Assembly: GCA_001724265.1 (NCBI GenBank)
Contig: MEDY01000107.1
Location: 62,001 to 82,598 of the forward strand
From: Rhizaria sp. SCN 62-66
Taxonomy: Eukaryota
DNA: 20,598 nucleotides
Direction: 5' to 3'
Shown: piece after piece, positions 1,483 to 20,598 of the stretch
Position numbering within the stretch: the stretch's first letter is position 1
How the letters are laid out: every line of letters begins with the position of its first letter
The notes under the pieces: model-generated
What the model saw: only the letters and a program-made list of their open reading frames with translations
What the model was told of the DNA's origin: nothing
Database searches by the model: none
Made by a program: the position numbers and the translations under genes

Positions 1483-1732
1483 GAGACACCGGGAAAATAA
1501 TATATATTCTACGTAGTAATAATTTTATTAGTGCCAAATTCAGTGTTATATAATACATAAATCTTCATTAACCCCATGGTACTCGTGATATTGCGTGTTT
1601 TCGGGGTCTCTGCTCGTGCTAACGCGCTGCTGCGGGCTTCGCTGTTCCCGCCCTTCAGAGAGTCTTTGATATGGGTCATATATCCGTCATCATCGCCATA
1701 TAATTGCACGGCTTAGATTAATAATTGGTTTT

Positions 1733-1830
1733 GTAAGTGAACACTATTTAATTTTTGCATAGACGCTCATTGGCCATCCCACACATCATCCCCCACTTTC
1801 ACCGCGCCTTCATACCATCCTTGCCCACAG
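1733..1830 (+). other. Putative spliceosomal intron (98 nt), probably in the 5' UTR of the J-domain gene
   Basis: Perfect GTAAGT donor at 1733, branch-like CGCTCAT at 1764-1770, and a C/T-rich tract ending ccttgcccaCAG at 1830. The frame after 1830 hits TAA at 1918-1920, so it does not extend the CDS. Confidence 0.5.
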
Positions 1831-1956
1831 GTCAAAGAAGAGCTCTCGAGCTCGCAACATCCTGCGTTTAGCGACAGAACCGACACGCACAGTATTGTAC
1901 ACACATCTTACCTGATATAACACCGGCTGCGCGGTCGCAGACAGAATATCTCCCGC

Positions 1957-4900
1957 ATGTCGATTAGTCTTGTTGAGGCCCTCACGGTCCTCAACTTCAC
2001 GGTCGAGGAGCGGACTCGGGGAATCGCGCAAGACGTTATCAAGCGGCGTTATCGCGAGTTGGCACTTAAATATCACCCCGACAAGTGTCCCGATGACCCC
2101 GACGCCACTGCGCGCTTCCAGCGCATCTCACAGGCCTACGAGTTGCTCAAGGATGCCGGTCCGGTCGTCTCGATCGCCCCGCCGCCCCGGAGCAACTCGA
2201 CTTCCGCCCGCCGCCCCGCTCACGGTACCCCGGGCAGCGCTTCCGACAATATGTCCGCCGCGTTTAACGCCTTTGCGTCGGAGCACTCCGCGGCGTACGC
2301 CGAGGCCATGCGCGCGCACCAGGAGTCGCAGGTCAAGGCCGCCGCGCGCGCCGCCGCCGAGCGCCAGCGCCAGGCTGCAGAGCGCCAGCGGCAGGCCCGC
2401 GAGGAGCGTGCTGCGGCCGAACGCCTCGAGGCCCAGATCTCCATTGCGCGCGCGCAGCGCCACCGCGAAAACCCCCTTGACTTCCTCCGCGTCGGGGCCG
2501 TGTTCATGTACCGTACGCTGCCACCGCGCAAGGCCACCGTGACGGCCGGCAACAAGGCTGCGGCCGCGGCGGCCGGAGCCGAGCGGCTGCTGCCCAAGGC
2601 GCTCGAGTTTGCAGGCGTTACCGTGCGCTCGCTGGAGCTGGAGATCCAGCGGTTGATCAATGAATCCGGCGGCTTCGACGCCATCCAGCGCGAACTGCTC
2701 AACGCCGCCCACGCGCTCATCGACGCCGCCGAAGGCCTCATCGCCGAGCAGCGCACGCGCGAGGCCCAGGTCGGCAACTGGGCCTTCACCGTGCGCAGCG
2801 ACGACTTGTGCAACGCGCCGAGCGTGATGGCGACGGCGGAGCGCAGCTTCATGTACCCGCGTAACTTCGTCGGTGGTGTGCCCGAGCAGTTCCACAAGCC
2901 CTCCAACGCAGAGCGCTTGCGGAGCTTCGGCAGCCACCTGCGCGCGACGGCCGAGGCCTCGCGCTCTGGTCTTAAGACCGCGTCACAGCGCGCGTGGGTG
3001 GCGCAGCTGCACGACCACATCAACCGGTTGCGCGAGATTGCCCGCGTCGCGCTGATCGAGGTCCCCGCCACGCTGCTGCCGCGCTTGCTTGCCGCCGCGG
3101 CCGCGGACCCGGTGCTGCAGACGCCGCCGCCGCGCGACTCGCTGGACCACCTCGAGCGCAACGCGTGGGCTGCGCTGGGCCGCACCGACGCGGCCGAGAT
3201 CACGCGCATCTGCGACGAGCTCAGCATCGCGCTGGGCCCCGGCTCCGTCGCCGCGGGCCGCATCGAGGCGCGCGTCACACAGGCGCTCGAGGCCGCGCTG
3301 ACGATGCTCGATCAGGTCGGCGCCATGTCCGCCTTCGCGAACGAGGTTGACGCCGCGCTGGCGCGCGAGGAGTTCAACGTGCTGACCGACACGCCGCCGC
3401 GCCGCAGGGTCGCACCACTGCGCCCCGTGGCCGCCGCCGTGGCCACCGCGCACGCCTCGCTCAACGCATCGGTCGCGGATGCGTATTCGGACGACGACGT
3501 CGACGACGACAGCGACGACGACGAGTACGACGATAACCATAGTGGCGCGCGTCCGCTGCGGCGCGCCCGCGGGGACCACGCCTGGGCGGAGGTCCTCGCA
3601 GCCGCCAAGGCCGTCGTCGCCTCCTCCGCCGCCGCCGACACTGTGCGCACTGGCTGGGGGGGGCTCGCTGCCAGCGCCGCTACGAACCCATGCGCCGGCT
3701 GCACATGCGGGACGCAGCAGCACACACAGGGCGCAGCTCCGGTAGCTGCGGACGTGGACGCGGCGCTGCTCGCGTCGGCGGGCTGGCAGGAAGGACTCGG
3801 CGGTCAGTCCATGCCCACCAAGCCCGCCGCCGCGACTCACAATAACAAATGCAATACCGGCAACAGCGCTGGCGTGGTTGGCGGCGCCTGCTGCCCCGGC
3901 GCGGCTGCCGCCGCTGTGGCCGCTGCGGGCGCGAGTGCCGCCGGTCTGGCCGCCGTGCCGCCCATGATGGGCTGCGCGGAGGGCGTGTCCCACCTCGATA
4001 GCGCACAACTCTCGCTTGACATGACCGCGGCGCTGCGCGCGGCGTACGCCAACGCGACAGGCCTGCTGCTTTTCCCGATGCTCGAGCGCGCCGCCAAGGA
4101 CGACTCGCCGCCGAGCGCCGACGCGCCGCAGCGCTTCACCGTGAAGGCCGAGGCGCGGCTGGCCGCGGAGTTTGCCGATGCGCTCGCGCGCAAGCTGCAG
4201 ACTGCGTTTCCCTTCGTCGACGCCAAGTGTAACAACGCGTACAACGGCGTCGCTCTGGCGACGCAGCTCGAGGAGGCGCAGGTTGCGCTCGCGGCGGCGG
4301 TGCTGACCGACCAGCAGGAGTCCAAGCCGGACTTGGACGCCGTCTCGCGCGTGCTCCTGCTGCGCGAGGCCGCGCTGAGCGTCGCAAGTCTCGCTATGCA
4401 CCGACGCCCGCTCAGCACGGCAATGCAGGTCTGGGCCGCGGGCGCCGTCGCGCGCGAGGCCAAGGGCCCGCGCCGGCTAGGCCAGTCCGGCAACCGCGGC
4501 AAGCTGACTGCATGGGGATCTGAGCAGGTGCTCGACGTGCCCGGGCAGTTCATCGGTAGCGACTGGGGTGCTGTGCTGCAGTGCGAGCTGGAGGCGGAGC
4601 TGGCTGCGCGCAGCGCCTACTCCACAGCCGCGATGGAGGGCCGCGGCGTTGTCGACGTGTCGGTGGCCCAACTGGCTGGCAGGTCGACCGCAGACGGCAG
4701 CCGCACAGTGCTGCGTCCGCCGCCGGTGACGACGCTGTTGCCGCTCGCGCTGCGCCGGTTGACCCCGCTGCTGGGCGTGATCACGCCGCGCGCCGTGGCC
4801 GACACGTTCACTGGCGCCGCTGTGCTGCAGGCTGTCGCCGCGCCCGCGTCGCTCCTGCTGGGCGACCCCGCTGAACGCTTTGCCGCGCGCCGCGTCTCGC

Positions 4901-6333
4901 CTATCGAGAAGGCTAAGCTTGACAAGGCAGCTGCCACGGCCAGCGAACACGCGCATCCCCGCACACGCAAAGGAAGTCGGCGCGCGCGTGCGACGAGGAG
5001 CTACCACAAGCACGCGTTTGCGGAGGCGGCCGCGTCTGCTGCTGCAGCTGCAGCTGCTGCCGCCGAGGCAACCAAGCCCACCACAGAGACGACTGACAAC
5101 TCAGCTTCTGCTTCTGCTTCCGCTGCCTCTGCAGCTAATGCCAGAAGCAACTCGTTCGTGCCGCCCGGTACTCCTCAGCGTCATCCTGCGTTCTCGCAGA
5201 AGAAGACGCCCCCGAGTAGTCAGCGCCAGCGCGCGCCTGCATCAGTTCGCCCGATGGTGGACGATGTGGACGACAACGTTGTGATTCTGAGCGACTCAGA
5301 CTCAGATGCCAGCGTTGTGGTCGGCGACGACTCCGATAACGACGGCACTGACCTCGTGATTGTCAACACACACCGCTCAGCCCAGGCACATGTGATTCAT
5401 ATCGACGATGACCGTGACTTGGACGCAGAGGACGACGACGTTGTGATCGACAACAGCCAGTTCAAGGGAATCTTTGGTGCTATGGACCTCCGCAGCGAGC
5501 CGCCGGTGACGGGTGCGGCCTCTGCAACAGTGAGCAACGACTCCGACAACGAAGACGCCGACCTCGATGCGCCTTCACGCTTTTCACTCGCTGCGGCGCG
5601 TGGCCGGAAGGTCCGCTCACCTTACTCCGTCGGCAAAAACGGCGTCCCCATGGGCGACGGGCTCGACGGCCTCGGCGACGAGGACGACACCGCTCTATCG
5701 CCCGAGGCCGCCACCGCCGCACGCGCTGCGCGGGCCGCGGCCGACGCGCTGGTCACGCGTTCGCTTGGCACCGGCGGCGCAGACGACCCCTGGCTGCTCG
5801 ACGACCAGGTCGCCACGCTGCAGCTGCTGCAGACGCGCGATACGCGTGCACCACGTGCCGTCCGCGCCGTCGCGGTGGCACTCCAGCAGGCTGCTGCTGA
5901 CGAGAGGATGATGCTGGGCGTAGACGCGGCGACGGTGCCACAGTGGCTGAGCCCGGACGCGCCGTCGCTGCTGCCGATGCCGGTAGACTTCGCAGTCACG
6001 GGCGCGCTCGCCGGCTGGATGCTGCCCGCACTGACCGTGGTTGGCGCACACTTGCAGGGCTTCGCGCTCAACTTTCTGCGCGCCAACGCCACCGCCGTGT
6101 CGGCGCTGCTGCTGCTGCCGCTTGAGGCACAGTACCAGCGTCACTTGGTGTGCCCCACGCGCAGCATCTCGGTTCCCACGCCGGGTGACCGTACTGTAGC
6201 CTTCTACGGCGCAGTTGCCATGCGCGCGGCCCAGATCGCGAACCTGACGGCGCTGCGCACGCGCGCTGTGGTGAGCGGCCAACGCACTGTCGCAGGCGAG
6301 TCAGTGGCGCCGTTGGAGGGCGTGCTCACGTAG
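1957..6333 (+). CDS. DnaJ/Hsp40 class C J-domain protein, 1458 aa if the TAG terminates; probably the 5' part of a larger gene
   Basis: The N-terminus ALTVLNF...[39 protein letters not shown] is a canonical J-domain (HPD at 2074-2082). It is followed by a charged helical segment and Ala-rich low-complexity sequence. There is an in-frame TAA upstream (1918-1920), and 1957 is the first ATG after it. Confidence 0.85.
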
Positions 6334-9300
6334 CACGAACGCCTCACTGAGCATACGACCTGGCTGCACACGCTGCTAGGCACGGACGCCGACGCCGCGC
6401 AATGCGAGCGCAACACGGCATCACTGGCCACCTGGAAGGGCGGCCGCTGGCTGCGGACGGAATTCATGTCGCTGCTCTCCGAGGCCACTGCTGCGGATGG
6501 GAGCAACGCCGCGGTGACGGCGCTGTGCCCGACTCTCGCGCACATGGACCCGCTGCCGCGCGCACTGGGGCCTCTGATGGACGCCGCGCTGCCGCTGCCG
6601 CTCGAGCTGCCGATGCACCAGCGCCACAGCGCGCTTATGCTCTGCGCTGACCTCCCCGAGACGGCCGCTGTCGGCGCCGCCGGCGCGTCTGAGGCCGCCG
6701 AGGCCGCGTGGATGCGTCAGGCGGCCTGGTTCGCCACGGACGCCGTCGACGCCGAGAACGACGACACCGACCGGCTGCGCAAGGTCGAGGCGCGCGTGCA
6801 CGGCGTCGTGACCGCGTGTCTGCGCGCGACCATCGCGGCCCGCTCGCGTGCGCGTCTGCTGCGTGACCGCGACCTGCGCGCTGCGGCCGCGCTGCCCGAT
6901 ACGCTCCCTTTTCGCAACGCCGCGCTCAACGGCAACGGTGCGATGCTGGCTGCGGCGTCCGCGGTGTGTCCCGCGGCCGCTGTGCTGCGTGCGTCCACGA
7001 TCGCGCCCGATGCGAGCTCCGATGGGCTTGCGTCGGTGCTGGTGCGTTGGGACGTGCTTTGCGACGCCGTGGCGCGCGCACAGAGCGTGGCGCTGATGGC
7101 GCTCGGCGAGGACGTGGCCGGTGCGACGGACTCCATTGCCGCAGCGGACTCGATCTCGATCTCCGGGCTGACGCGCGAGGCGATGCGCACTGGCAGTGTG
7201 GCTGTGGCTGCTGGCGTGCTTGAAACGCTACAGGAAGCCACTGCGTCGCTCGCTCTCGAGATGGCCGCGCTAGGCGACGTCGCGGCTGACCTGCACATCC
7301 AGGCGCAGCTCGCCACGCCGCAGGCACTCGCTGCTGCGCGCGCATCTGTCACCGCGGGACCCGGCGTGCACGTGCGCGTGGGCTCCGTGCCTGCGCCGGA
7401 CCAGTCTTCAGCCGATGCCCACGCAACGTACGTGGCGGCAACCAGTCACACTGTGCAGTCGGAGCGCACTGCACATCCAGCGTCATTCCTGGCGCACGAA
7501 GCCGCGGCGCTGGATCCAACTGCGGCCAAGTCCGGCGTGCCGGTGACCGCGAAGCTGCGCTTGTCTGACGCAGTTGCGCCGCTTGATGTAAACTACACAC
7601 AGCTCTCGGAAATGTCACAGAAGGTGCAGTTCGGCCGCTCCACAGTGCTCAACTTTGTTGCTATGCAGGTGGAGACGCTCAACCGCGACTCTCGCCTCTC
7701 ACTCCTGAGCGCGGGCGTCGCTGCGGGGCTCGCAAGTGACCTGACATGGGCATTCCCCTGCACTTCCGAGGTGGAGCCGAACGTTATTAATGTCGACGGC
7801 CGTTCCACGCAGTTCTCCCCCAGCGCCGCCGTCAACGCGGCTGCGAACCAGGCGCGGGCCGCCGCGATTGCGCGCGTGGCAGCGCTGTGGGCTGCGGCCC
7901 CCGAGGGCGTCGGTATGAATCTCGCCCAGGCCTACGATTCCGCGACCGATGTGTGGCGCGAGTTCTCTGCCCGCTCCCAACAACATCACCACCAGCCCGA
8001 CGACGAGCTGGCAGCTGACGCGCTCGATGCCGCCGTCACGCGCGCTGCGCTCGCGGCGGCGCGGCCCAACCTGGTTGCGGCAGGCGTGCTTGACCGCCGC
8101 CGGCGCATGCTGCTGCGCTGGGCAACCTTTGCCGTGTGCTCCTCGGCCTGGCTTACGCGTTACGGCCCCGGCGCTGCGTCTGCGGGCACAGGTGTTGCCA
8201 GCGCGGGCGCAGGTTCTACTGCAGAGTCGATCGCTGCGAATACGTTCGATGTTGACGCACATAACAACGCGATTACTGCACGAAGCACACAGACTCACCC
8301 GGGTGTGGCGCCGCTGCCGTTGGTGGGCACTGCGCCTGTGCTGTCACCGCATGCCCCGTCGCAGGACCGTGATGTCCTGATGTTGCTCGCTCCTCCGGTT
8401 CTTCTGCTGTCGGCGGTCCGCGGCGACCGTTGGATGTCGTTAGCCAGGTTCGAAGCTATTTTTGCACATGCTGGGTACATGGATCACAACTCGGATCTCG
8501 CGCGCGATTGTGCGGCTGCACGCTTTTCTGACTCAGATCACGATTCATCACAGTGTCTGCTCACTCTTGGCCGCGCAAACGTTAAGGACGTGGTGCCACA
8601 ACTGCCCGAAGCGAAATTTAAGGGGCGCATTCTCACATCCGCGTCACGCGCTCTCCTCGCGCACCAGCCCTTGGCGCTGGTGCCGCGCATGCTAGCCGGT
8701 GTCCCGCTGCGGAAGCGCTTCCCGTCCCTGACCTCTCTGTCGCTTTTGAGGCTGCCAGGCGCGGTGTCTCGCAGCCTTGACTGCGTCCCGACGTCGGATG
8801 CTGTGCTGGTGCGATCCGCAATGTCCTATGGCGGTCTGGCGTCGCTGGTGCTGCGCCCTGACGCATTTGCACTGAACCTGGGCATTGAGCGCCCACCGGG
8901 CATGCAGCGTCTGCGACAGCCAATCGTGACGGCTAATTTCTCTCAGCAAACACACTTCACGTTGCCATCAAGTGGATACACGACGCGCAACTACGAAGAC
9001 GAGGTTTCCACCGCGTTCAACAACATCGACTACAATACCAGTTTCTCCGACATGACCTGGCGCCACTGGGTTGGGAACGTGCCGATGCCCACTGGCATTG
9101 TCGGCGGGGAAGAGCCTCCCACAGGACCCTGGACTGCGAGATTCGCTTCCTTCGCCTCGTGCGAAGTGCACAAAGACGTCAGCAACCGCTCTGGCGCTAA
9201 GGACCGCTCATGCCGGCCTGTGCACGGCACCACGGTCTTCTCTGTCGTGCCAGGCGCCGAGGACTCGAACGCCTGTGACTGCCCTTGCTCCGCACAAGGC

Positions 9301-12300
9301 ATGCTCTCGCGGAACGCGCGTGCTACCGTAGAGGCCGTTGCCCTGCAGCAACGCAAGGCGTGGGTCGACGTGCTCGCGACCTACGCACAGTATCACGCCA
9401 CACACACGCCCTACTTTACGTGGGAGGCTGCAGGCTCGTCGCCCGCGCCTGATATTGAAGAGACTTTGACGGAGCGCCCAGTCACCCTTGTTCAGCTGGA
9501 CACCATCTCGATCAATTTCATGCTTCTCCCTTCGCTGCGCCGCTACGTCGGCGGGCTCTACGACAAACACGTCTCCAAAGTCGCGATCACGGCCACTGTT
9601 TCGGGAAGCTCCGCGCGCGCGGCGCAGCAGCAGGCTGCGTTGCTGGCGGCGGCGCCTGTGGCGGCCTCACTTCTTGACTGGTGCCCCACAGCCACACCGC
9701 TCTCGGCAGCGCTGCGTGTGACCGAACAGTTCGCTGCCTCGCTCACGCCTTCCGCGGACGCTCTCCCCGCAACAGCATCGAAGCTCATGGCGTCGAGCAG
9801 CGCATCCGCGGGACCCTTCACGCTGCCATCTGCGTCCCGCGTCTCGCAGGATCTGTCAACACTGGACGTATTCAATGTCGCGCTCGTTGCGCACCTGTAT
9901 ACAGCTCTTACTCAATCTGTCGCTGCGATCCGCCAGGCATGCGCGCTGTCGCAGCCCACTGTCGCTGCCGCCGCCATGGGCCGCACGCTTGCTAACTCAG
10001 TGCCTATGCCGTCAACGCGCGCCGCTGCCTTAGCGCCGAATCTGCACTCGCAGTCGCGCATGCAGCAGCACGAACGCGCGCAGCATATGCTCTCAGCGAT
10101 GGCTGCGCGCTCCGAGGCCGCCACAGCGCGCGCTGCGGAGACTGGCTCGGGTGGCGCAACTTCTGCTGCTGCTGTCTCCGCGGCTGTGGGTACGTGGCAG
10201 AGCGAACTCCGTCTGCGGCCTTACTCGTTAGCCGTGCCTTATGGCTCGTACGCCGAGTACCAGACCTCACCAGACGCTGCGCTCGAGCGCGCCTTCACCA
10301 CCGGCGCGATGCCGGGCTCGATCGCGGACTCGCTATTCCGCTCCTCGGCCGGCGGTTCGCGCAACCCGTCGCCGCTGGTCGGCGCGTTGCTGCGCCCCAT
10401 TGCAACCGCTGTGCTGGCTCGTGTCAAGAACACTCCGCTTGACGACGGTCAGTCTGCGTGCCTCATCGGCGTATCTGCGCGCGAGATCGATGCCGACATC
10501 GGCAAGCGCCCCTTTGGTACGCTTCCGCCGCCTCCAGCGCTCTTTGACGCGCAATCCTTGTGGCGCGCCCCTGCTCGTGCCGAGTGGGCCGTGCTTCTGC
10601 GCTGCCTTGACGTTTGCTCATACTTAGACCGCGCATCCACGCCACCGTTGCTCCGTGGCCGCGTCTTGTTCTCGACGCCCGCACGCTTTGACCTCGAGCG
10701 TGCGCTCGTCGCCCTCGCTGCTCACCGCACGCAGAGCTTACTCTCTGGCGCCGCTGCGGAAAGTGCGACGGCACTGAGCGCGCCCGTGCTGCTGCGCGGT
10801 GACCCCGTTGCGGGCCTGGGAATGGGTGTGCTTGAGCTCTCACGCGCTAGTCTTGTTTCGCACACCGGCGCGCCGCACGATGCACGCCTTGACGTCGAGG
10901 TGCGCCGTGTGCGCGCGTGGTGCGGCGTTACTGCGCCGATCTCCTTGCGCGCATGGACTCGACTGCGTCCGGAAGCGGCGGCGCTCGACGCTGATGAGAA
11001 GGAACTGCACGCTCATGGCGCTATGACGCTCAAGACTTTGGCACATATGAGGCTGTCGACGCGCTTCTTTGACACGACACACGATGCTCTTGCACTGCCC
11101 AGCGCGCCCCGTGGACTGCTGCGCCGTGTGAGTCGCCGTAACGGACGCGTCATCCGCGCCCCGCCTGTGCTCGGGTCGCACAGTAGCGGTGCGATCATGC
11201 TCTCGGAATCCTCAGACAGCGAGCTGGACTCCGACACTGAGGCCAATGCTGGTGCTGAACACACGCCGCTCCGCGTGTACATGACATCGCCCCGCGCACT
11301 CGCGGATGCAATGCTGCCTGTGTTTGCGCGCGGCATGACGGCGCTGTCGCTAAGCAATCTTCTCAAGAAGGAGGAGCTCGATGCAGACGCTGTTAATGTT
11401 GACCAACCGGACAGCGGTGATAGCGATGGAGTTTCTGATGCCACGTCCAATGGCTCAACGGCCGCGTGCTCTGCGATTACCGCCGCATCTCAGCTAGTCG
11501 ATGCCGCACGCGATGCTGCTCAACAGCCGCGCACACGCGCTGCTAAGGCACGCCTGCACGCGACACCCTCCGGCCAGACGCACTACTTGCTGCCACTTCC
11601 AACCGAGTGGCGCCTGTTTCTGTCGCGCCTGCGCCTCATGGCTGCAACGGGCGGTGCGAGTCTGTTGGTGACGTGTGACGCGTCGCTGCTGGCAGCCGAC
11701 ACGAGCGTGCTCACTCTAGTGCTGCCCCGCCGCGGCAGTATGAGCGCCGGAGAGAAGTCAGCCTCACTGCGCGCAGACCCACTTTCTCGTCTCAGCGCTG
11801 ATGCGATCGCAGCTGGAGCTCTTAACTCGTTTTCTCTTGCGACTGCTGCCGGATTGCATTTGCAGGCTCCGACCGATGCCGGAGGCGCCGATTGGGCGCG
11901 GCGTGCGGCATTGTTTGCCGGTAGTTTGATTTTTCAGAGCCCCGTGTCCTCAGCGCTTGCGATGACACTTTTTACAGCCGCCGATGCGAACCCGTTTTCT
12001 GCTCCCACGGCTAACAATCACAACAAGTGTGCTTTGGTGCGCGCAACTGCGACTGCGCTGGGTCACTCGACCGCGCTATTGACTGTGCGTGTACGCAATG
12101 TCGATCCCGCGAACAGGACGCCGGCGATGACACCACGCGGAAGCATCGCGCTTGCGCGTCGCCACTGGCGCTTTGTGCGTGCCTGTGCGGCTGCAGCGCT
12201 GCGTTCCTCCGGCGCTGCGCAGATCGCACAGTCGTTGCTGAGCGGGGGCAATTCACAGGTGTGCTTCACGAAGGACAAGTCACTCCAGCATGAGCACGTG

Positions 12301-15300
12301 CTGCTCACTCAGGCTGCCCGTCTCGAGGCCGCTGCACTCGCTGCGCTTGCCCGCGTCGCCGCACGCGAGCTACGTTGGTTAACTGCCACGCACGCGTCGC
12401 TGTTGCACATCCCTGCGCTTGCGGCCGCCGTGAGCAGTGGCCCAACCACGCTATCATCCTTTCAACACGCTCCTGTTGGTTCGCGCACGACGCCAGCTGT
12501 ACTCGCGGCGTTGCGCAAGCTGCCCGCGTCTTCTTTGGCAGGCGGCTCGTTGGCGCATATGCGCGCGGGATCGTGGGCTCTCAGCAACAGTGTTCCGGGC
12601 CGTGTGGTGGCGCCACCTGTGGTGCTGACGCCTATGTGTGCATCCGTGCTGCTGCAGCTCGCGCTGACGCCGGCCTGTGATGTGGGCCACCAAGCCTTAC
12701 AGGACGACACCGTCGTGACTGCTCGTGGCGGCCGTGAGCTGTTGGCTGACGCAAGCGATGCGACTGCTCACCGTGAGCAGCTGCTGCGCTCCTCTTCGCG
12801 TAGCAAGAGCTCGAGGGTGCATGACACCATCGTTCACGTGCGCGACATCTGCGCTCAGCAGCCGCTCTTTGGTGACCCGCGCGCGGGCACCGGCGTCAAC
12901 GCCTTTGTCCAGGGCGAGGAAGAGGAGAAAGCCGAGCGCGCTCTTGCGGCGACGTCTGCTGCGGACCCTTGGGCCTGCGCACGCGATAAGTACGCCGCCA
13001 CTGTGGGCGCGCCTGCTGCAGCGTTCGCACGCACTGTGGCAACTGCGCACATGCACGCGGCCGAGCCTGTGACGACGCGCTGGCAGTGGCTCTCCGGCAC
13101 CACAGGCATGCTCCGCGACGCATTGGCGACGGCCACAGCGGGCGTCGATGAGTGCAAGGACGACGACGGGCTCGCTGACGCGCCCTCGTTGCGCGCTGTC
13201 GTGACTGCACAGCGCGCGCTGGAGCGCGTGAACATGCGGCTGCTGCCGCCGGGACTGCGCGACGACGGCAACAAGTTGGCAGTGCTCACCGCACCGTGGG
13301 GCCCTCTCTCTCACCCCGACGCTGTTGCTGCGGTCGATGTGGCGACAGCGCTCGACGGAGTCACTTCACCAGGTGTCACGGCGCTGCTGCATGCGCCTTG
13401 GTTGCACGCTGTGGCGATAACTTCGGCGACAACGGAGAGTAAACCCTCCACTTGTGCCTCAGCTATGACGCTCGCATCACCTTCTGCCGCTGTTGCAACG
13501 CCCGTTGCACTGCCGGCGTGGGTTTTCCTGCCTTCGATGACGTCTCTGCTGCGCACAGCTGCGATGCGCCCGGGCCGGGTGGCGACTGTGGTGGGCATCA
13601 TGAGCGAGGCCGTATTCAACGAAACCGTATCGAGCAACTCGCCCGACCGCGCATACAGCCACGTCGTGCTGTCGCACATTGTCGACTGTTCGAGTGACCG
13701 CATCAATCACTGGATTATGACATCCGCTGAGATGACCACTGCGGCGATAGAGCACAACACCCGTTTGGGCTCAGTGGAGATGGGCCTGTCGACTGCGTCC
13801 ACCGCGCTCGCACGCACGCGCGCCGCGCTCGAAGTTCTGGTCCGCGCCTCCGTTGGTGGTGACACAGACCGTCCTTCCACGGTCGCGGATGGCTCTCACT
13901 TCGCGCGCGCCGGCGAACAGCCTCTTGACGACCGTGGTGCCCTGCAGAGCCAAATGCTCGTCGCCGTTGTCAACTCCGTGCAAGCCGCGGGCGTGCGGGC
14001 CGCGTGCGCCGCCGACGACGCCGCAGTGCGTCTTGCAGTCGCCGACAGCCTGCTCGCTGCGGTCGCCGCGCGGCCTCATGTGCAGACCGCCAAGGTTCCT
14101 ACGGTCGGCTCCGGCGTTGCCGGCCACCAGCCTCTCTGGGGCACGCCTGTGTCTGAGCACGCCTACGTGACGCGGCTCGCGACGGAGGTCCAGCTTGGAG
14201 CGTCTCTGTCTGCGCGCGCTGCAGCCGACATCCCACATCCGCTGCTTGCACTGGCACCGTTCGCGGTTGACCAGCGCACTCGACTCCCTGTGTTGGCCCA
14301 GCTTTCGGGCCACCGCTCGCTGCTTGCACTGCAGGCGTTGTTTACGGCCTCGCTTGTCGCAGCGCCCGCCGAGACGCTGTTGCACGCCAATGACGCTGTG
14401 TTAGCTGCGCGTGCGTTGGTGCCGCCGCCGATTACGCTGGCCGCGTTCCCGGGCTCCTCGAGCGCTGCGTCCGCGAGCGAGGGCTGTGCAAACGTGATCA
14501 ATCGCTCTGCAGTGCGCGCACTGTTTAGCGCTGCTCACTGCAAGCGCGAGCGGCAGCAGTACGACTCATTCCAGCAAGCTGTGGCACAGCCCTGGATGGC
14601 GACCGCGCCGCTGAGGTCTGCCGCGCGCGGATGGTTTGACGCTGCCTCTGGTACAACCACGATGCTGCATCTGCTTTCGGTCGCGTCGAGCTTAACGGGG
14701 AGCGACGCTGCTGCCGACACAGAGCCTGCACTGAACGTTTCCTTCCGCATCGCCGCCGGCGCCGTCACCGCTGCGTTGAGCCTGCTGCTCAGGACTATTG
14801 AGACTCACGCCCCCGCGCGTCTGCGCGCCCCACGCGCGTTGCTCTGCGGCGTCACTGTCACGCCGCGCGCTGCTGCTGCACAGGGCGCTTCGCTCGCCGG
14901 CCTGCAGTGGTGGCTCGCTCCCGCGCAGCCGCTGCATTTCGTCCGCGGCCCGCCCTCGGCCCATCTGGGATTCTCAACCGCGCAGACCGGAGCCGCTGCG
15001 GCGCGCACCCACAACACGACACGCTCAATGGTCGACGCACAAGTGCAACCCGCGGCTCCGGCAACTCTCGCTGCGGCACTGCGCAGTTTGGTGGCAACGA
15101 CGGCGTTCGCGGGCGTGAGCTTTGCGGCCGCGCGCTCGTTCCCGCATAAGGCGTTATCAGGCGTACAAGCGGCTCTGCTGTCTGCATGCTCGAGCGCGCT
15201 CGCTGCGGCGCCGCTATACCTCACGCACATGGCCGCGTGGCGCCAGCTTGCCGTCGACTCGGGCGCGGCTGCTGCGGAGCTGCTGCTGCTTTCACCGTAT

Positions 15301-17742
15301 CTGCTTCTTGAGGAGGCGAAGAACGGCGGGAGCAAGTCTTCACCTGCCGCGTCCACCGCGGTTGTGCCGGCTCGCGAGACGCGTCAGGAGATGGTGCCTT
15401 ATGCATATTCTGGTGCCGGCCTGCAGAACCCCACGCTTGCCAGCAGTGTGGGTGGTGGCGGCAGCATGATGGTGGAGGTGGATCCAAGTTTGATTGTGGA
15501 TGACGACGACAACAGTTTTGATGACGTTGTGAACGGGGTTAACCCAACGGCATCCGGACTCACTGCACATGAAATCGCGCTCGCTCGCAGCGGTCTTTCG
15601 AGCGGCGGCATCTCGCTGTCCGCGCTGGATCGGCTTGGCCGGCCTCTGAAGGCGCCCTCGACTGCGCTGCAAGTGGTTTCCAGCGATCGTGCGTACCTGC
15701 TGGCAGACTCGCCCGAGGCGGCGGCAGCGCTGCGCGACGAGATCGAGAAGGGCGAAAGTCACGACTCGATGACTTCGCTGCGGCGCTTCGCCGTCACGCT
15801 TGCCGCGCGCGGCTGGGCTACGGCTGCATCGGCCGTCGGTTTCCTGCTCCGCGGTCTTCCACACGCTGTCACCATGCGTACTGTAGCACAAGATCTCGCT
15901 GCTGGCAATAACATCGCCCGCGCCACCCGAGCACGCGACGCCATCGGCACCGACCGCACTGACAACTGGTCACTGGCGCGCGTGTGTGGCGCTCTCGCGC
16001 TTCCAGCAGAGCAGGTTCTGAACGAGGTTTGGGCCGGTCTCGATACCACAGCCGGTGCGCTCAGCCCGGCGCCTCCAGCGGCGCCCCAGTCGCTCGCTGG
16101 CTACTTCTTCAGTGCGACCGCAAGCCCGGCGTGCTTCGCCGAGGCCTTGCTGAACCTGTGCCCGCTTGTCGCCTCGCCGAACGTGACCCCCGCAACGACA
16201 ACCGTGCTGCCGCGTGCGCTGCCGTCGCGTGCGCCGTTCCTGATCCCTCTCACGTCATGCGGCCACGAGCACTGCCCCGCGGGCTCGCAGATCTGCACAG
16301 CGGCGCACAACGCGCTGGCGATGCAGCTGGCGCATACACAGGCGCTCGCAGTGGCCGCCGGCTTCGGCCCGCTGTGGCAGACCCACTTCATGGATCCCTT
16401 CGCACTGTGGGCCGAACGCGCGCGCAACGGACTCGCGCCGTATTTGCAGACCAACTGCGCTCAGTACGGCCCGTCGACGCTCGCAACATCATGGGCGACG
16501 CAGCACCAGCGCCGCGCCACGCCCGTTGCTGACCCCGCGACGAACGCCTTCGCAGTTCTTGCCGCTGTCGGCGACGCACTGTGCACTGCTAGCAGCTCGA
16601 GCACCGGAGACGCGATGACGCCGCTGGTTTTGCACGCGGCGCCCGGATTTGCGGTCAATATCCCCTCGATTGAACTGCACGTGCGCACGCTCTTTGCCGC
16701 GAGCAATAGCCCGCCAGTGCGCGAGTCCAGTGCGTCGCGCGCGCTCGTCGCCGCTCTTCCCGCGCCCGCTGCTCTGTCGCTTGTCCGTCACTCGCCCCCA
16801 CCCGTCGCTGCTGCGAGTGCTGGAGCCAGCGTTCCTGCATCGGCCTCGTCACGCAAGCGCGCCCCCGAGAGCACTGCGGCGCTTGAGACGCAGCAGCAGC
16901 GCCCCGCACAGCCCGCGCATAGCGCTGCGGAGGTTGAGGAGATGCGCCGTCTGGCGGCTGAGCTCTTGCAAGCACAGGCACTCGAGGCCGAACGCAAGCG
17001 CTTTGCCAGGATGCGCGAGGAGCGCCGCGCAGCTTCTGCTTCCGCTGGTACAGCCGCTGCTGTAGTCCCTGCAATTGCCACCGGGAACGCGATGGTGGTC
17101 GCCCCTGCGCCTGCGCCTGAGCCCGCCCCCGCTCCTGCCCCCGCGCCTGTGCCGACGCCTGCGCCGTTGTCCGCACTAGTGTCCGCGCCTCCGCCATTGA
17201 CGGACATGATGGTGATCGACGCGAGCGAGACCGAGTCTGATACGGACTCGGACTTGGTGTTGGAGGCGACGAGCGTCGATGACAACGACGGCGACGACAG
17301 CAGTAACGGTGGCCGCGCCGTGCCAAGCGCTTCGCCTGCAACATCGATAGCCGCAACCGCATACATGGCACCTCTGCAAGAGTCGGAACAAGACCGCGAC
17401 TTGGATGCAGAGGATTCTGACCTCGACGTGGATTCCGGCCACAACAACAACGGGCCTTACGGTGCCACAAGCAGCAGCAGTGCTAGCAAGCCCGTGCTTT
17501 CCAACGTGGACCCGTCGCTGTTTAGCAAGGTCATCAGCATGGTGCCGAACAAAATGGCAGCGTCTGGCCTCAATCTGGCTGCACGCGGGCGGCCGGGGCT
17601 CGACGGCGGCTACGCAGAGCCCCGGCGGCCTATGGGCCTACAGGGCGCTGTCTTGAGCAGCGCTAAGGGTATGAATGCCCAGTTGGAGGCCTTCCGCCTA
17701 AGGAAGCAACAACAGGACGCTGCCAAGCGTGATAAGATGTAA
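1957..17742 (+). CDS. Preferred gene model: single giant J-domain protein (5261 aa with TAG decoded; 5240 aa if 6271-6333 is spliced out)
   Basis: 1957 and 6466 are in the same frame. 6334-6465 is 44 stop-free codons ([44 protein letters not shown]) with coding-like GC content. There is no AT-rich spacer, unlike the other gene boundaries in the window. Confidence 0.7.
1963..2154 (+). other. J-domain
   Basis: Helix [14 protein letters not shown], the HPD motif and helix [16 protein letters not shown] match the DnaJ consensus. Confidence 0.95.
2353..2394 (+). repeat. Tandem 21-nt coding repeat (AAERQRQ x2) in a predicted coiled-coil/charged helix
   Basis: gccgccgagcgccagcgccag followed by gctgcagagcgccagcggcag; differences are synonymous. 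Confidence 0.8.
3490..3534 (+). repeat. GAC-rich acidic tract ([15 protein letters not shown])
   Basis: Imperfect (GAC)n run read directly from the sequence. Confidence 0.8.
6466..17742 (+). CDS. 3758-aa Ala-rich hypothetical ORF (probably the C-terminal continuation of the J-domain gene)
   Basis: 11.3 kb of uninterrupted frame ending in TAA, followed immediately by AT-rich DNA. No confidently recognised domain; the start at 6466 is doubtful. Confidence 0.85.
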   Translation: MSLLSEATAADGSNAAVTALCPTLAHMDPLPRALGPLMDAALPLPLELPMHQRHSALMLCADLPETAAVGAAGASEAAEAAWMRQAAWFATDAVDAENDDTDRLRKVEARVHGVVTACLRATIAARSRARLLRDRDLRAAAALPDTLPFRNAALNGNGAMLAAASAVCPAAAVLRASTIAPDASSDGLASVLVRWDVLCDAVARAQSVALMALGEDVAGATDSIAAADSISISGLTREAMRTGSVAVAAGVLETLQEATASLALEMAALGDVAADLHIQAQLATPQALAAARASVTAGPGVHVRVGSVPAPDQSSADAHATYVAATSHTVQSERTAHPASFLAHEAAALDPTAAKSGVPVTAKLRLSDAVAPLDVNYTQLSEMSQKVQFGRSTVLNFVAMQVETLNRDSRLSLLSAGVAAGLASDLTWAFPCTSEVEPNVINVDGRSTQFSPSAAVNAAANQARAAAIARVAALWAAAPEGVGMNLAQAYDSATDVWREFSARSQQHHHQPDDELAADALDAAVTRAALAAARPNLVAAGVLDRRRRMLLRWATFAVCSSAWLTRYGPGAASAGTGVASAGAGSTAESIAANTFDVDAHNNAITARSTQTHPGVAPLPLVGTAPVLSPHAPSQDRDVLMLLAPPVLLLSAVRGDRWMSLARFEAIFAHAGYMDHNSDLARDCAAARFSDSDHDSSQCLLTLGRANVKDVVPQLPEAKFKGRILTSASRALLAHQPLALVPRMLAGVPLRKRFPSLTSLSLLRLPGAVSRSLDCVPTSDAVLVRSAMSYGGLASLVLRPDAFALNLGIERPPGMQRLRQPIVTANFSQQTHFTLPSSGYTTRNYEDEVSTAFNNIDYNTSFSDMTWRHWVGNVPMPTGIVGGEEPPTGPWTARFASFASCEVHKDVSNRSGAKDRSCRPVHGTTVFSVVPGAEDSNACDCPCSAQGMLSRNARATVEAVALQQRKAWVDVLATYAQYHATHTPYFTWEAAGSSPAPDIEETLTERPVTLVQLDTISINFMLLPSLRRYVGGLYDKHVSKVAITATVSGSSARAAQQQAALLAAAPVAASLLDWCPTATPLSAALRVTEQFAASLTPSADALPATASKLMASSSASAGPFTLPSASRVSQDLSTLDVFNVALVAHLYTALTQSVAAIRQACALSQPTVAAAAMGRTLANSVPMPSTRAAALAPNLHSQSRMQQHERAQHMLSAMAARSEAATARAAETGSGGATSAAAVSAAVGTWQSELRLRPYSLAVPYGSYAEYQTSPDAALERAFTTGAMPGSIADSLFRSSAGGSRNPSPLVGALLRPIATAVLARVKNTPLDDGQSACLIGVSAREIDADIGKRPFGTLPPPPALFDAQSLWRAPARAEWAVLLRCLDVCSYLDRASTPPLLRGRVLFSTPARFDLERALVALAAHRTQSLLSGAAAESATALSAPVLLRGDPVAGLGMGVLELSRASLVSHTGAPHDARLDVEVRRVRAWCGVTAPISLRAWTRLRPEAAALDADEKELHAHGAMTLKTLAHMRLSTRFFDTTHDALALPSAPRGLLRRVSRRNGRVIRAPPVLGSHSSGAIMLSESSDSELDSDTEANAGAEHTPLRVYMTSPRALADAMLPVFARGMTALSLSNLLKKEELDADAVNVDQPDSGDSDGVSDATSNGSTAACSAITAASQLVDAARDAAQQPRTRAAKARLHATPSGQTHYLLPLPTEWRLFLSRLRLMAATGGASLLVTCDASLLAADTSVLTLVLPRRGSMSAGEKSASLRADPLSRLSADAIAAGALNSFSLATAAGLHLQAPTDAGGADWARRAALFAGSLIFQSPVSSALAMTLFTAADANPFSAPTANNHNKCALVRATATALGHSTALLTVRVRNVDPANRTPAMTPRGSIALARRHWRFVRACAAAALRSSGAAQIAQSLLSGGNSQVCFTKDKSLQHEHVLLTQAARLEAAALAALARVAARELRWLTATHASLLHIPALAAAVSSGPTTLSSFQHAPVGSRTTPAVLAALRKLPASSLAGGSLAHMRAGSWALSNSVPGRVVAPPVVLTPMCASVLLQLALTPACDVGHQALQDDTVVTARGGRELLADASDATAHREQLLRSSSRSKSSRVHDTIVHVRDICAQQPLFGDPRAGTGVNAFVQGEEEEKAERALAATSAADPWACARDKYAATVGAPAAAFARTVATAHMHAAEPVTTRWQWLSGTTGMLRDALATATAGVDECKDDDGLADAPSLRAVVTAQRALERVNMRLLPPGLRDDGNKLAVLTAPWGPLSHPDAVAAVDVATALDGVTSPGVTALLHAPWLHAVAITSATTESKPSTCASAMTLASPSAAVATPVALPAWVFLPSMTSLLRTAAMRPGRVATVVGIMSEAVFNETVSSNSPDRAYSHVVLSHIVDCSSDRINHWIMTSAEMTTAAIEHNTRLGSVEMGLSTASTALARTRAALEVLVRASVGGDTDRPSTVADGSHFARAGEQPLDDRGALQSQMLVAVVNSVQAAGVRAACAADDAAVRLAVADSLLAAVAARPHVQTAKVPTVGSGVAGHQPLWGTPVSEHAYVTRLATEVQLGASLSARAAADIPHPLLALAPFAVDQRTRLPVLAQLSGHRSLLALQALFTASLVAAPAETLLHANDAVLAARALVPPPITLAAFPGSSSAASASEGCANVINRSAVRALFSAAHCKRERQQYDSFQQAVAQPWMATAPLRSAARGWFDAASGTTTMLHLLSVASSLTGSDAAADTEPALNVSFRIAAGAVTAALSLLLRTIETHAPARLRAPRALLCGVTVTPRAAAAQGASLAGLQWWLAPAQPLHFVRGPPSAHLGFSTAQTGAAAARTHNTTRSMVDAQVQPAAPATLAAALRSLVATTAFAGVSFAAARSFPHKALSGVQAALLSACSSALAAAPLYLTHMAAWRQLAVDSGAAAAELLLLSPYLLLEEAKNGGSKSSPAASTAVVPARETRQEMVPYAYSGAGLQNPTLASSVGGGGSMMVEVDPSLIVDDDDNSFDDVVNGVNPTASGLTAHEIALARSGLSSGGISLSALDRLGRPLKAPSTALQVVSSDRAYLLADSPEAAAALRDEIEKGESHDSMTSLRRFAVTLAARGWATAASAVGFLLRGLPHAVTMRTVAQDLAAGNNIARATRARDAIGTDRTDNWSLARVCGALALPAEQVLNEVWAGLDTTAGALSPAPPAAPQSLAGYFFSATASPACFAEALLNLCPLVASPNVTPATTTVLPRALPSRAPFLIPLTSCGHEHCPAGSQICTAAHNALAMQLAHTQALAVAAGFGPLWQTHFMDPFALWAERARNGLAPYLQTNCAQYGPSTLATSWATQHQRRATPVADPATNAFAVLAAVGDALCTASSSSTGDAMTPLVLHAAPGFAVNIPSIELHVRTLFAASNSPPVRESSASRALVAALPAPAALSLVRHSPPPVAAASAGASVPASASSRKRAPESTAALETQQQRPAQPAHSAAEVEEMRRLAAELLQAQALEAERKRFARMREERRAASASAGTAAAVVPAIATGNAMVVAPAPAPEPAPAPAPAPVPTPAPLSALVSAPPPLTDMMVIDASETESDTDSDLVLEATSVDDNDGDDSSNGGRAVPSASPATSIAATAYMAPLQESEQDRDLDAEDSDLDVDSGHNNNGPYGATSSSSASKPVLSNVDPSLFSKVISMVPNKMAASGLNLAARGRPGLDGGYAEPRRPMGLQGAVLSSAKGMNAQLEAFRLRKQQQDAAKRDKM
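17101..17166 (+). repeat. Ala-Pro dipeptide repeat linker ([22 protein letters not shown])
   Basis: Imperfect GCNCCN hexamer repeat. Confidence 0.85.
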
Positions 17743-18320
17743 ACTCGACTTATCATGACCAAAGTACCAACATCTGCGAACGTGAAAGGAGAACCAAGCC
17801 TTTTTCTATTTTATTTCAAGCATCAACTCTTGAGTAATTTTTTCCTCTAGAATCAAACCACTTACACTAGCTATTCTTACAACTGTTATTTAGTATTATT
17901 CGTACTGCCCAAGCATACGCAATGTGATCATGTCTGGATATAAGAGCGTATTACACTCTTCATGTTACGTGACAAACAATACACTTCGTTCTAGTTATTA
18001 CACATACTAGTACATTGTACTACAATTCACCCGTCATGATATTGCAAACAAGCTTTTGTCAGTCATCGAATGGAAAATAAAATTGACTATGTATTGTTGT
18101 CAATGATACCACTATTCACAGGCGATACAATTGACAAGTATTAACTCTCATCAATACATATATAAGCACACGGAAACAAAAAGCTTCATAAAAGGGTTAA
18201 CTATAGTCAAGGGTAACTAGTGATCACACTTCTCAATCTTTCGTTAAATTCCCGCATCACGCAGAACGCTTGATTGCCAAGCCATGCAACGCTTACGCGG
18301 ACCCACTCACACGGACCCGC
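17743..18320. other. AT-rich spacer holding the convergent 3' UTRs of the giant gene and ALG5
   Basis: Lies between two convergent TAA stops, is mostly AT-rich and has no credible ORF. Confidence 0.7.
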
Positions 18321-19593
18321 TTACGCGGACTTGCCGGCCTTGCCCGCGGGCGGCGCGTTGGCCTCCATGACGCGCTTGCGCGCGGCGGCGGCGTCAACGG
18401 GGTAGAGCGTGCGCAGCGTGGCGATGGCGTTGGCGGGGCCCACGCGGCTGCCGGCCTCAGTGGGCCGCGGCAGCATAGCGACAACCGCGGCGGCGTCGGG
18501 CAGGTCGATGCGCCAGAGCCCAAGCGAGTAGCAAACGCGGATGACGACGAGGTCGCGCCCCATCGACAGCGACGCGTCCATGAGGTTCATCTTGGAGCCG
18601 TCGATCTCGGCCCAGTTAATCGCGACTTCGGCGACAGGGATGGCGAGCTGCGAAGCCAGGTACAGCAGCTCGACGTCAAAGCACCAACGCGTGAGCCGCT
18701 GGTTGATGAAGAGCACGAGCGCGGTCTTGCGCGTGAAGAGCTTGAACCCGCACTGCGTGTCGCGCACACTGTGGATGCCCGAGAGCAGGCGAACGAGGAA
18801 GTGGAAGCCGGACATGAGCACGTTGCGGTACCACTTGCGCTCCGCCACGGCGTCCTCCTGCAGGTGTGCGCGCGAGCCAATGGCGATGCCGAGCCCGTTC
18901 TTCTCGACGCGCGTGAGCTCCTTCTCCAGCCGGGACAGGTGCGAGAAGTCAGACGCGCCGTCGGCGTCAGCGAAGAGGATGCGGGCGCCGCGCGCGTGCA
19001 GCACGCCCTGCTGCACCGCACCGCCCTTACCAACGTTGTAGGGCATCTTGAGCAGGCGCACATTCTCGGCCGAGTAACCCTTGACGAAGTCGAGCACGGT
19101 GGCGCACGTGGCGTCCGAGGAGCCGTCGTCGACGACGATGACTTCGTACGTGAAGGTCGGGTCGTTTGCGTTGCGCTCCTGCAGCGCCGTCAGCGTCTCA
19201 ATGAGCATGGGCGGCAGGCGCAGCGCCTCGTTGTATGCGGGGACAATGACGGAGAGAGAAACCTTGGGGGCGTCATAGATGGACGGGAAAGCGAAGTGGG
19301 CGGTGGCGCCAGACTTGCTCGCAGCAGCAGGGTCGGGGAAGAAGTGCTCGAAGGATAACGGGTGGCGGTTCTTGAACGAGGCAATGATAGGTTGAGCGAA
19401 CCACCAAAGTCCGTAGAACTATCAAGGAGACAATCCGGTGGGGTGAATGTGGATCATTGCGAGGTGAGCGATACTGAAATAAAGGGGCATGAAAACAACG
19501 GCGAAGGACCGCATGCGGAGGCAGAAAAGGAGGGATACACGGGGATCGACGTACGATAATGCAAGAGACAGAAAAGACAAGCCACCAGACCAT
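18321..19593 (-). CDS. ALG5: Dolichyl-phosphate beta-glucosyltransferase (GT2 family), two exons: 19593-19555 and 19418-18321, 378 aa
   Basis: Motifs LSVIVPAYNEALRL, YEVIVVDDGSSD, NVGKGGAV, ILFADADGA, AIGSRAHL, DTQCGFKLF, RWCFDVELL and NWAEIDGSK are ALG5-type. The frame stays open 70 codons upstream of the track's start at 19208. Splicing gives the expected N-terminal membrane anchor MVWWLVFSVSCII|FYGLWWFAQPII. Ends in TAA. Confidence 0.93.
19419..19554 (-). other. Phase-0 spliceosomal intron of ALG5 (136 nt)
   Basis: On the minus strand: donor GTACGT at 19554, pyrimidine-rich body, branch-like CGCTCAC (19470-19464) and acceptor tctccttgaTAG at 19419. Removing it joins the two exons in frame. 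Confidence 0.88.
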
Positions 19594-20598
19594 CTTGTTC
19601 CGCTATAAAAGATATGTTACATTTGTGTGAAAATCGTTCGTGAGACGTGAAAGGGGGTAACAGAGGCGATGAGTGAGGATGGCTGACAGAGCATTCGAAG
19701 GTCAAACCGGGAGAGGCGCGGTAGACTGTCCCTTTGACCAGAGTCAGTTAATTTTAGATATATTCGTGAAAAGCACCTATTCTATATGCAACACCTTATA
19801 CTATGTCTGTTTGACGGATGTGCGTGAGATTTTGCGTGTTACAAAGGAACCCAACTCCCCGACAAGCTGTGGCCAACAGTCTCTTCGCAAATGGGGCATG
19901 TGATACATTGAATATATATCTTCATGACCGTGACATCATTGCTTCTGACATCATGTGCATCCGAAGTCGCAACGTTTGTTGTTTATTCACTTTGATTGGT
20001 GATGATGAATGTACAATGAAGTATGTCTCTGTGTTATATAAATAAAGCGAGACAATACTGTCACCATTGGTCAGGTGCTGACCGCCACGATCACTGTCAC
20101 GCAACCAATGAGATGTGTGACTCTTGTTCTACCTAGCACGGCTGTGATGGTTAATGGAGGCGCCTGCGTTTTTTTTTGGTGCAGCATCCCTTGATAGTGC
20201 ATGTTTGTGATACCCACATCATAGTCGATTGTAAATGACTTAAACCCACAAAGGTGACTGTGTCACTACCAGTCTTGTGAAAAAACGGCCAACCGGGAGT
20301 AAGAAAAATCGCAAACAGCCACAAACAGACCAATAGATATGATACATGCTAATTAGATATGTCACACAGTTCCACCATGCTTTGGAGACGAACCAGCATG
20401 TCGAGTTATCTTTCCTGCCTTCATCACGGTTTCAGTGACTTGTCAGTTGTTATCATGGCATTTTGTCACTCAGTGTCGACAAGATTTCTCGATCACCACC
20501 TGTTACGCACGAAATTTTACATAAAGGGACTCTCTCACAGGAAATCCACAGAGAAACGGCACCCAACGACCTCCTAAGCTCCCTTTATCAGGGTGGTG

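Follow-up and report, generated by a model that had tools for sequence, protein, structure and literature searches.

A lone in-frame UAG inside a giant J-domain protein gene from a Rhizaria assembly: possibly a recent nonsense change

Why does a single stop codon interrupt what otherwise reads as one very long gene? The question is raised by a stretch of 20,598 nucleotides (nt) of contig MEDY01000107.1 (Rhizaria sp. SCN 62-66, assembly GCA_001724265.1, positions 62,001 to 82,598), the whole of which is called the window here. In it, two open reading frames (ORFs) lie in the same frame of the plus strand and are parted by one TAG. ORF1 with its TAG (1957..6333) encodes 1,458 amino acids (aa), an N-terminal J domain followed by alanine-rich orphan sequence, and ORF2 (6466..17742) encodes 3,758 aa, ends in TAA and matches no Pfam family or Protein Data Bank (PDB) sequence. 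The leading explanation, held tentatively at a probability of about 0.43, is that the TAG is a recent nonsense change in one ancestral giant J-domain gene of about 5,261 codons. It is supported by the continuity of coding sequence over the TAG, by purifying selection on ORF2, by the lack of any hallmark of recoding, and by the rarity of TAG, which stands at one of 199 would-be glutamine codons. The odds in this report, put into words for the other readings, are the author's judgement from likelihoods and general base rates and not a computed posterior.

The TAG at 6331..6333 (codon 1459) is the sole internal stop that an ORF scan finds in a frame of 5,262 codons. The ATG at 1957, the TAG and the ATG at 6466 share this frame, which ends with the TAA at 17740-17742 and yields 5,261 residues, and each of the other five frames contains 67-142 stops over the same span. 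The stop stands in the context ACG-TAG-CAC-GAA (6328-6339) and is followed by a linker of 44 open codons (6334..6465) before the next ATG. A first-pass annotation, made by a model from the letters alone, had described two ORFs in one frame separated by a TAG and 44 open codons, and had given the same stop context; both descriptions are borne out by the coordinates. The open linker is indeed present, but it is less telling than that annotation implied, being unremarkable as an open run: GC-rich phase-blind simulations stay open for as long in 44-50% of cases. The chance of 44 codons without a methionine is likewise 0.42.

Misassembly or a wrong base call had earlier been a live option for the origin of the stop. 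An error is now very unlikely indeed, because a contig from a second sample matches the window across the TAG without differences. This contig, from DNA run X3, covers 5451-7676 (2,226 nt) at a depth of 7.4 with no other letters; the letters at 6331-6333, which had been proposed for a check against raw reads, thus again read TAG at contig level. The exact 1,458-aa product is also recorded from six contigs (two sources) and the 3,758-aa product from four, and run X3 differs from the window in at most two listed letters over 18.5 kb. What could still speak for an error is the origin of the window in a metagenome assembly of low depth, together with the possibility that X3, although it is not the sample of the probable source run X1, is the same data as run X2 from the study of X1. 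Window sequence occurs in bioreactor, wastewater and related metagenome runs, in part in 10 of the 12 listed and to half or more in four; runs X7-X10 hold small shares only, and it was the contigs (not reads) of four of the 12 that were compared with window positions 1400-19900. The population carrying the TAG may be near-clonal, and in that case a private allele would appear on all its contigs.

ORF1 and ORF2 very probably made up one ancestral gene. The 132 nt after the TAG have a GC content of 0.67, while the three genuine stops of the window are followed by sequence with values of 0.34, 0.36 and 0.48. No A/T run in 6000-6700 exceeds 4 nt, and in two spacers such runs reach 15 and 11 nt. 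These spacers, which serve as controls for real gene boundaries, are the low-GC sequence 5' of ORF1 (1483..1956; 474 nt, GC 0.45) and the AT-rich sequence between ORF2 and the neighboring gene ALG5 (17743..18320; 578 nt, GC 0.38). The earlier remark that the TAG lacks the AT-rich spacer seen at other gene ends is thus confirmed. Poly(A)-like hexamers number 14 in the two spacers and zero in 5500-7500. Codon-usage scores in sliding windows of 44 codons are positive in frame 0 in all 19 windows from 5803 to 7122. The linker itself scores above 99.9% of off-frame windows, has a GC content at third codon positions of 0.82, beats phase-blind Markov simulations (p 0.009-0.037) and exceeds intergenic sequence in coding likeness by 36-41 bits. 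GC at fourfold-degenerate sites does not drop at the TAG (0.75 before, 0.83 after), and its best change-point lies near nt 4900.

These same measurements leave only a slim chance to fission into two separately expressed genes, with an ORF2 transcript that starts within the linker or 5' of it. The length of both ORFs and the ATG at the head of each fit such a split, as do the lowest-GC 60-nt window of 5700-7300, which starts at 6323 (60% GC), and the periodicity of the linker, which reaches only the 6th-8th percentile of coding windows in the Markov test; the last two points speak mildly against a fully unbroken run of coding sequence. However, a separate gene would be expected to show what the TAG region lacks, namely an AT-rich 3' end with poly(A)-like hexamers and a promoter-like spacer; the true spacers here are 474 and 578 nt long and 38-45% GC, and the linker is far more coding-like than intergenic sequence. 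As a separate observation on composition, fourfold-site GC along 1957-17742 declines, being about 0.85 over the first 3 kb and about 0.65 past 8 kb, and it dips to 0.55 within a low-complexity stretch near 4957-5556.

The family identity of the product rests on the N-terminus of ORF1. Its DnaJ (J) domain (2026..2154, aa 24-66) matches Pfam PF00226 with an E value of 5.7e-15 and 55.6 bits, against a cut-off of 27.8, and holds the HPD motif at aa 40-42, so ORF1 carries what defines a J-domain protein, the Hsp40 group of Hsp70 co-chaperones, and the J-protein identity proposed earlier stands. All 44 PDB sequences that match ORF1 at E<=0.01 do so within the N-terminal J-domain region, and the 3,802 codons 3' of the TAG match no Pfam family at E<=0.1 and no PDB sequence. 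The protein is like the class C (type III) J-domain proteins in that it has the J domain with its HPD motif and Pfam finds no further DnaJ-type domain in it. It is unlike them in that more than 5,100 residues are without a detectable relative and the J domain is the only family assignment. An AlphaFold2 model of 400 aa across the TAG, built from a single sequence, is uninformative (mean predicted local distance difference test score 40.7, predicted template modeling score 0.23), and the helix that it predicts across the TAG is not taken as evidence.

Differences between strains point to past selection on ORF2. The strain in run X4 is diverged from the window by tenths of a percent. The comparison covers 40 of 75 differences, with X4 contributing 31 of 66, and 32 of 1,339 pieces were listed; the other 35 are assigned to X4 by subtraction and include kinds of change able to alter the TAG. 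After five non-coding differences are left out, 35 of the 40 lie in the long frame and 24 of these in ORF2, or 23 once position 17120, which lies in a repeat matched by several contigs, is dropped; two adjacent single-nucleotide polymorphisms (SNPs) of one codon were scored singly. Synonymous changes account for 12 of the 23, where neutrality would predict a fraction of 0.28 (p 0.013), for a ratio of nonsynonymous to synonymous polymorphism (pN/pS) of about 0.36, and stop gains for none of them. Excluding a six-SNP cluster at 15352-15407 leaves 10 of 17 synonymous (p 0.007). Judged from these SNPs, ORF2 was under purifying selection and was translated over most of the strain divergence, perhaps before the TAG arose. 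The cluster is an observation in its own right, since it packs six differences, four of them nonsynonymous, into 56 nt and is far denser than anything elsewhere in the gene.

A further reading of the SNPs is possible when they are polarized by assumed AT-biased mutation. Window-side A/T SNPs, assumed to be derived, are nonsynonymous in 5 of 8 cases and look neutral (p 0.47), and those on the X4 side are nonsynonymous in 5 of 12 (p 0.045 for purifying selection). The two sides do not differ significantly (Fisher p 0.65), and the polarized SNPs give a weak hint that fits recent relaxation in the strain of the window. For run X5, all four of its differences are displayed and none lies at the TAG; the contigs listed for X4 and X5 do not cover the TAG. 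The single remaining differences of X3 and X6 are probably accounted for by contigs elsewhere.

Searches for relatives add little to this picture, and the proposed alignment of orthologues across the stop could not be made, as the searches found an orthologue neither for the junction nor for ORF1. A HMMER search with aa 1260-2400, read through the TAG, against 1,835,955,588 representatives returned two matches, both of them the ORFs of the window itself. A word search with the 261 aa around the TAG found nothing among 8,000 candidates of lengths 143-457, and aa 1-500 of ORF1 matched one of 7,998 proteins of 876-2,500 aa, which was itself. Orthologue scans came back empty for JGI metagenomes (0 of 176 stretches), GTDB genomes (0 of 156) and IMG/VR (0 of 38), and the ESM Atlas gave no usable match for ORF1 or for nt 9157-15000. 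Within the window, there is no internal repeat and no paralogy with the first gene that could substitute for an orthologue. In the literature, the titles and abstract openings listed showed no paper about a J-domain protein gene with readthrough, nor any about a comparable case from a protist.

A nonsense change would account for the locus in a simple manner. A sense codon one step away, such as CAG or TGG, would have turned into TAG, and ribosomes would mostly terminate there and release a 1,458-aa protein that retains the J domain. The TAG is real and lies within a continuous, selected coding frame, and termination with a truncated J protein would be its simplest outcome. A long 3' tail after a stop exposes an mRNA to nonsense-mediated decay, and the 11.4-kb tail here probably does so. 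Strain-specific premature stop alleles are known in microbial eukaryotes, and this locus is like them in having one stop in an intact, codon-biased frame with signs of past selection downstream; it departs from the known alleles in that the intact version is not seen here, the listed X4 and X5 contigs lying off the site. Any full-length protein would arise only via basal leakiness, which for stops with a C at +4 is reported as about 0.5-2% in cell-line reporters (PMC13278127). From the J domain alone, that protein would be expected to bring Hsp70 to a scaffold that is large and probably helical. A nonsense allele had been allowed for in the first-pass annotation and is here ranked first.

Several points weigh against a nonsense allele. 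A constrained gene should not easily keep a null allele, and because selection should remove one, versions of the gene in which the stop is rescued deserve weight. An in-phase strict donor lies 63 nt upstream of the TAG, and just 29 of 672 TAG-neighbor codons (4.3%) have one; the occurrence of CA after the UAG has by itself a chance of 5.6%. No protein of read-through length turned up among the 1.84 billion representatives or in the word search. By the sequence evidence, the best rescue would be a 63-nt splice that removes the stop, an unlikely event in its own right, and after it the appreciably less likely readthrough.

If the stop is spliced out, the TAG would be the acceptor of a 63-nt, phase-0, in-frame intron (6271..6333, donor GTGAGC). 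This candidate GT-AG intron is hypothetical and would probably be young, made from coding sequence by intronisation; its removal would take away 21 codons, including the stop, to give a protein of 5,240 aa, and unspliced mRNA would be removed by nonsense-mediated decay or give the short form. Splicing was absent from the options of the first-pass annotation, although the window holds a GT-AG intron in ALG5, and this intron (19419..19554, minus strand; 136 nt, 53% GC, 69% pyrimidine) both shows that the organism can splice out a GT-AG intron whose acceptor is TAG and, as the only clear intron in the window, provides a yardstick. The segment is short, a multiple of three and in phase 0, it would restore the frame, and its donor, which follows a G, fits the strict form GTRAG, one of only 19 such donors in 15.8 kb. 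The 29 TAG-neighbor codons counted above have an in-phase donor 40-150 nt upstream, and 7 of 672 have a branch-like motif too. The donor set was, however, chosen post hoc, and a broader set gives 171 of 672 (25%). Splicing would also explain continued selection on ORF2, and short segments that contain a stop and are a multiple of three in length are what the intronisation model is reported to predict (Catania and Lynch, PMC2586383). Against this, 60 nt of the segment keep in-frame triplet periodicity (p 0.006-0.010 against phase-blind simulations) and score about 20 bits above intergenic sequence, which rules out an intron of great age. At 68% GC and 43% pyrimidine, it is also unlike the ALG5 intron. 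The acceptor has no pyrimidine tract (44%, against 68% in ALG5) and ranks at the 26th percentile of YAGs in the gene, and the branch-like CTCAC lies just 5 nt from the end, so neither tract nor branch point resembles those of the organism's own intron, a comparison that draws on one reference intron. Of the 15 joints listed out of 43, none connects 6270 to 6334, and the listed RNA pieces do not cover the site; the table of joints, built at 88% likeness, is filled with matches of other organisms and may mask a joint of low depth. Contigs of the poly(A) run X6 flank the TAG (for example, 4371-4663 and 6390-6642), with none listed across it. The near-nil depth of X6 in spacer bins was set aside as proof of transcription, being expected by chance at 20% coverage. 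Introns from donors 6185 or 6191 to an acceptor at 6379 were considered and rejected, as the periodicity of 6191-6330 is strong (10-13 bits) and the donors are without G at +5. That acceptor, CTAG at 6379 in the linker (6342-6379), looks better, with CTCAC about 34 nt upstream, and cannot be joined in frame to the donor at 6271. The candidate is like the products of intronisation (PMC2586383) and like exitrons (PMC4484396) as these are described, in being short, a multiple of three, exon-like and frame-restoring, with a latent donor and a weak acceptor. It differs from exitrons, which are described as holding no stop by definition (PMC4484396), in that the stop here is the acceptor, and it is a candidate only.

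That UAG is decoded as an amino acid and a 5,261-aa J protein made, be it by regulated readthrough without a known signal or by a young or sparing reassignment, is rather unlikely overall. Programmed readthrough, an improbable explanation when taken separately, would have a near-cognate tRNA, most likely one for glutamine, decode UAG in part and so give both a 1,458-aa and a 5,261-aa form. The extension is in frame, coding-like and selected (12 of 23 SNPs synonymous, not shown with the stop present), and contigs from an RNA library flank the TAG, one of them starting in the linker at 6390, with DNA carry-over possible. A C at +4 is reported as common to all validated Drosophila readthrough elements, and glutamine as an amino acid inserted at UAG (PMC13278127). 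Of the codons in the window, 28% begin with C and only 5.6% with CA. The tobamovirus motif, as reported, is UAG-CAR-YYA, with two 5' adenosines that stimulate readthrough (PMC3542737). As in this Type I signal, the UAG is in frame with a downstream ORF, is followed by CA and precedes a long extension; unlike it, CAC-GAA matches three of the six positions of CAR-YYA, the two 5' bases are CG and not AA (the preceding codon being ACG), and the gene is a cellular one (PMC3542737). Nor is there a stable 3' stem-loop of the kind found in types II and III: modeled without pseudoknots or long-range pairing, the 3' RNA is no more stably folded than shuffled sequence (z -0.91; all seven windows between -0.98 and +1.36), and the window has no Rfam match. 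The usual proof would be conservation of the stop, and no orthologue turned up in the searches above. An extension of 3,803 residues, with a potential 3' untranslated region of 11.4 kb, lies far beyond familiar cellular cases such as kelch and headcase, whose extensions span hundreds of residues. The Drosophila kelch, headcase and synapsin cases do share with this locus the C at +4 and a coding-like extension, but they are reported to be backed by conservation between species as well as by ribosome profiling and proteomics (PMC13278127), where the present evidence comes from sequence. Readthrough thus has nothing beyond the CA dinucleotide in its favor. Of the readthrough-like context claimed by the first-pass annotation, the C at +4 and the UAG-CA stand but, given how often codons here begin with C or CA, tell less than it implied, and the resemblance to the tobamovirus signal, which it had called incomplete, ends at three of six positions; likewise, of its one transcription unit with recoding, what survives is a single coding unit broken by a real TAG, with the recoding site unsupported. 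The site is not to be filed as programmed readthrough, given that neither the full motif nor a structure was found and that no orthologue shows the stop conserved.

Reassignment of UAG as a rare sense codon for glutamine or leucine, as in Iotanema spirale and the rhizarian exLh, is quite improbable. All three genuine stops of the window are TAA and the ALG5 gene of a relative (locus L001) ends in TGA, which is like these two organisms in that the genes seen there are reported to end in UAA or UGA and to contain in-frame UAG (PMC5304391, PMC9161772). Codon bias is so extreme (AGA 2 and ATA 3 in 6,132 codons) that one UAG would sit near the rarest sense codons. Yet four stops make too small a sample to establish avoidance of TAG for termination, and in place of many in-frame UAGs at conserved positions there is one in 6,132 codons, as compared with a reported 204 from 126 Iotanema genes and 384 from 71 exLh genes (PMC5304391, PMC9161772). 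As a share of glutamine codons, UAG stands at 0.5% (upper 95% bound 2.8%), and in I. spirale at a reported 8% or so, which would give one or none here with a probability of 1e-6 (PMC5304391). First-position synonyms are used here at ratios of at least 0.23 (TTG to CTG, 69:294), predicting about 40 TAGs, and the conserved ALG5 contains no in-frame TAG in the window or in L001. The known change is, moreover, reported to be confined to one lineage (PMC9161772). Repair of the stop by RNA editing, A-to-I to give a tryptophan codon as in fungal pseudogenes, has next to no chance of being correct. The mechanism is a known one, with U preferred at -1 and hence UAG (PMC11156358, PMC10776026), but these sources describe it in filamentous ascomycetes, and the host groups with no named sequence. 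In addition, X6 shows no A>G among 12 differences, and there is no unusual structure at the stop. An X6 contig (RNA, depth 4.76) does read six C as T, at 5646-5649, 5655 and 5702, where DNA run X3 reads C, as does X4 at 5646-5649; these sites may reflect damage, an artefact or C-to-U editing in one low-depth contig. Across all coding frames, AGA (2), ATA (3) and CGA (7) are extremely avoided among the 6,132 codons, and TAA serves as the genuine stop throughout despite coding sequence of about 70% GC.

The neighboring genes provide information about the host. ALG5, a dolichyl-phosphate beta-glucosyltransferase gene on the minus strand (18321..19593), starts at 19593, and its two exons (19593-19555 and 19418-18321) together encode an N-terminus matching the uninterrupted one of the relative L001, which is intron-less and 76% identical. 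The GT-AG intron of ALG5 marks the host as a eukaryote that has spliceosomal introns in small number. The 295-aa ALG5 protein in databases (P0002) is an N-terminally truncated call. A scan of JGI data for ALG5 gave one true relative (L001, 1,489 nt) among four loci, and the corresponding GTDB scan gave 80 prokaryotic glycosyltransferase loci of 35-44% identity that were not used. In a tree of 126 ALG5 sequences, built by a quick method, the host falls in a branch of 16 with a Shimodaira-Hasegawa-like approximate likelihood ratio test (SH-aLRT) value of 97 and no named member. The branch comprises P0002-P0008, P0010, P0018, P0066 and P0124-P0129, from metagenomes and other records, and is possibly an undescribed protist clade. 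At the other end of the window, positions 1-1482 (plus strand) hold the 3' end of an alanine-rich orphan frame (493 codons, open at its 5' end, ending in TAA) with no Pfam match and no similarity to the large gene. A scan for bacterial promoters and terminators (0 sites) is inapplicable to a eukaryote.

What the TAG means for this organism depends on which of these readings holds. If it is a nonsense allele, as seems most likely, the case is ordinary and matters for annotation only: gene callers have split one orphan gene into two, and its halves are filed as separate proteins. If the stop is spliced out, the segment would be a candidate for an intron caught at birth, as the intronisation model predicts. 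If UAG is decoded, the gene would have either a readthrough extension far longer than the familiar cellular ones or a new change in the genetic code.

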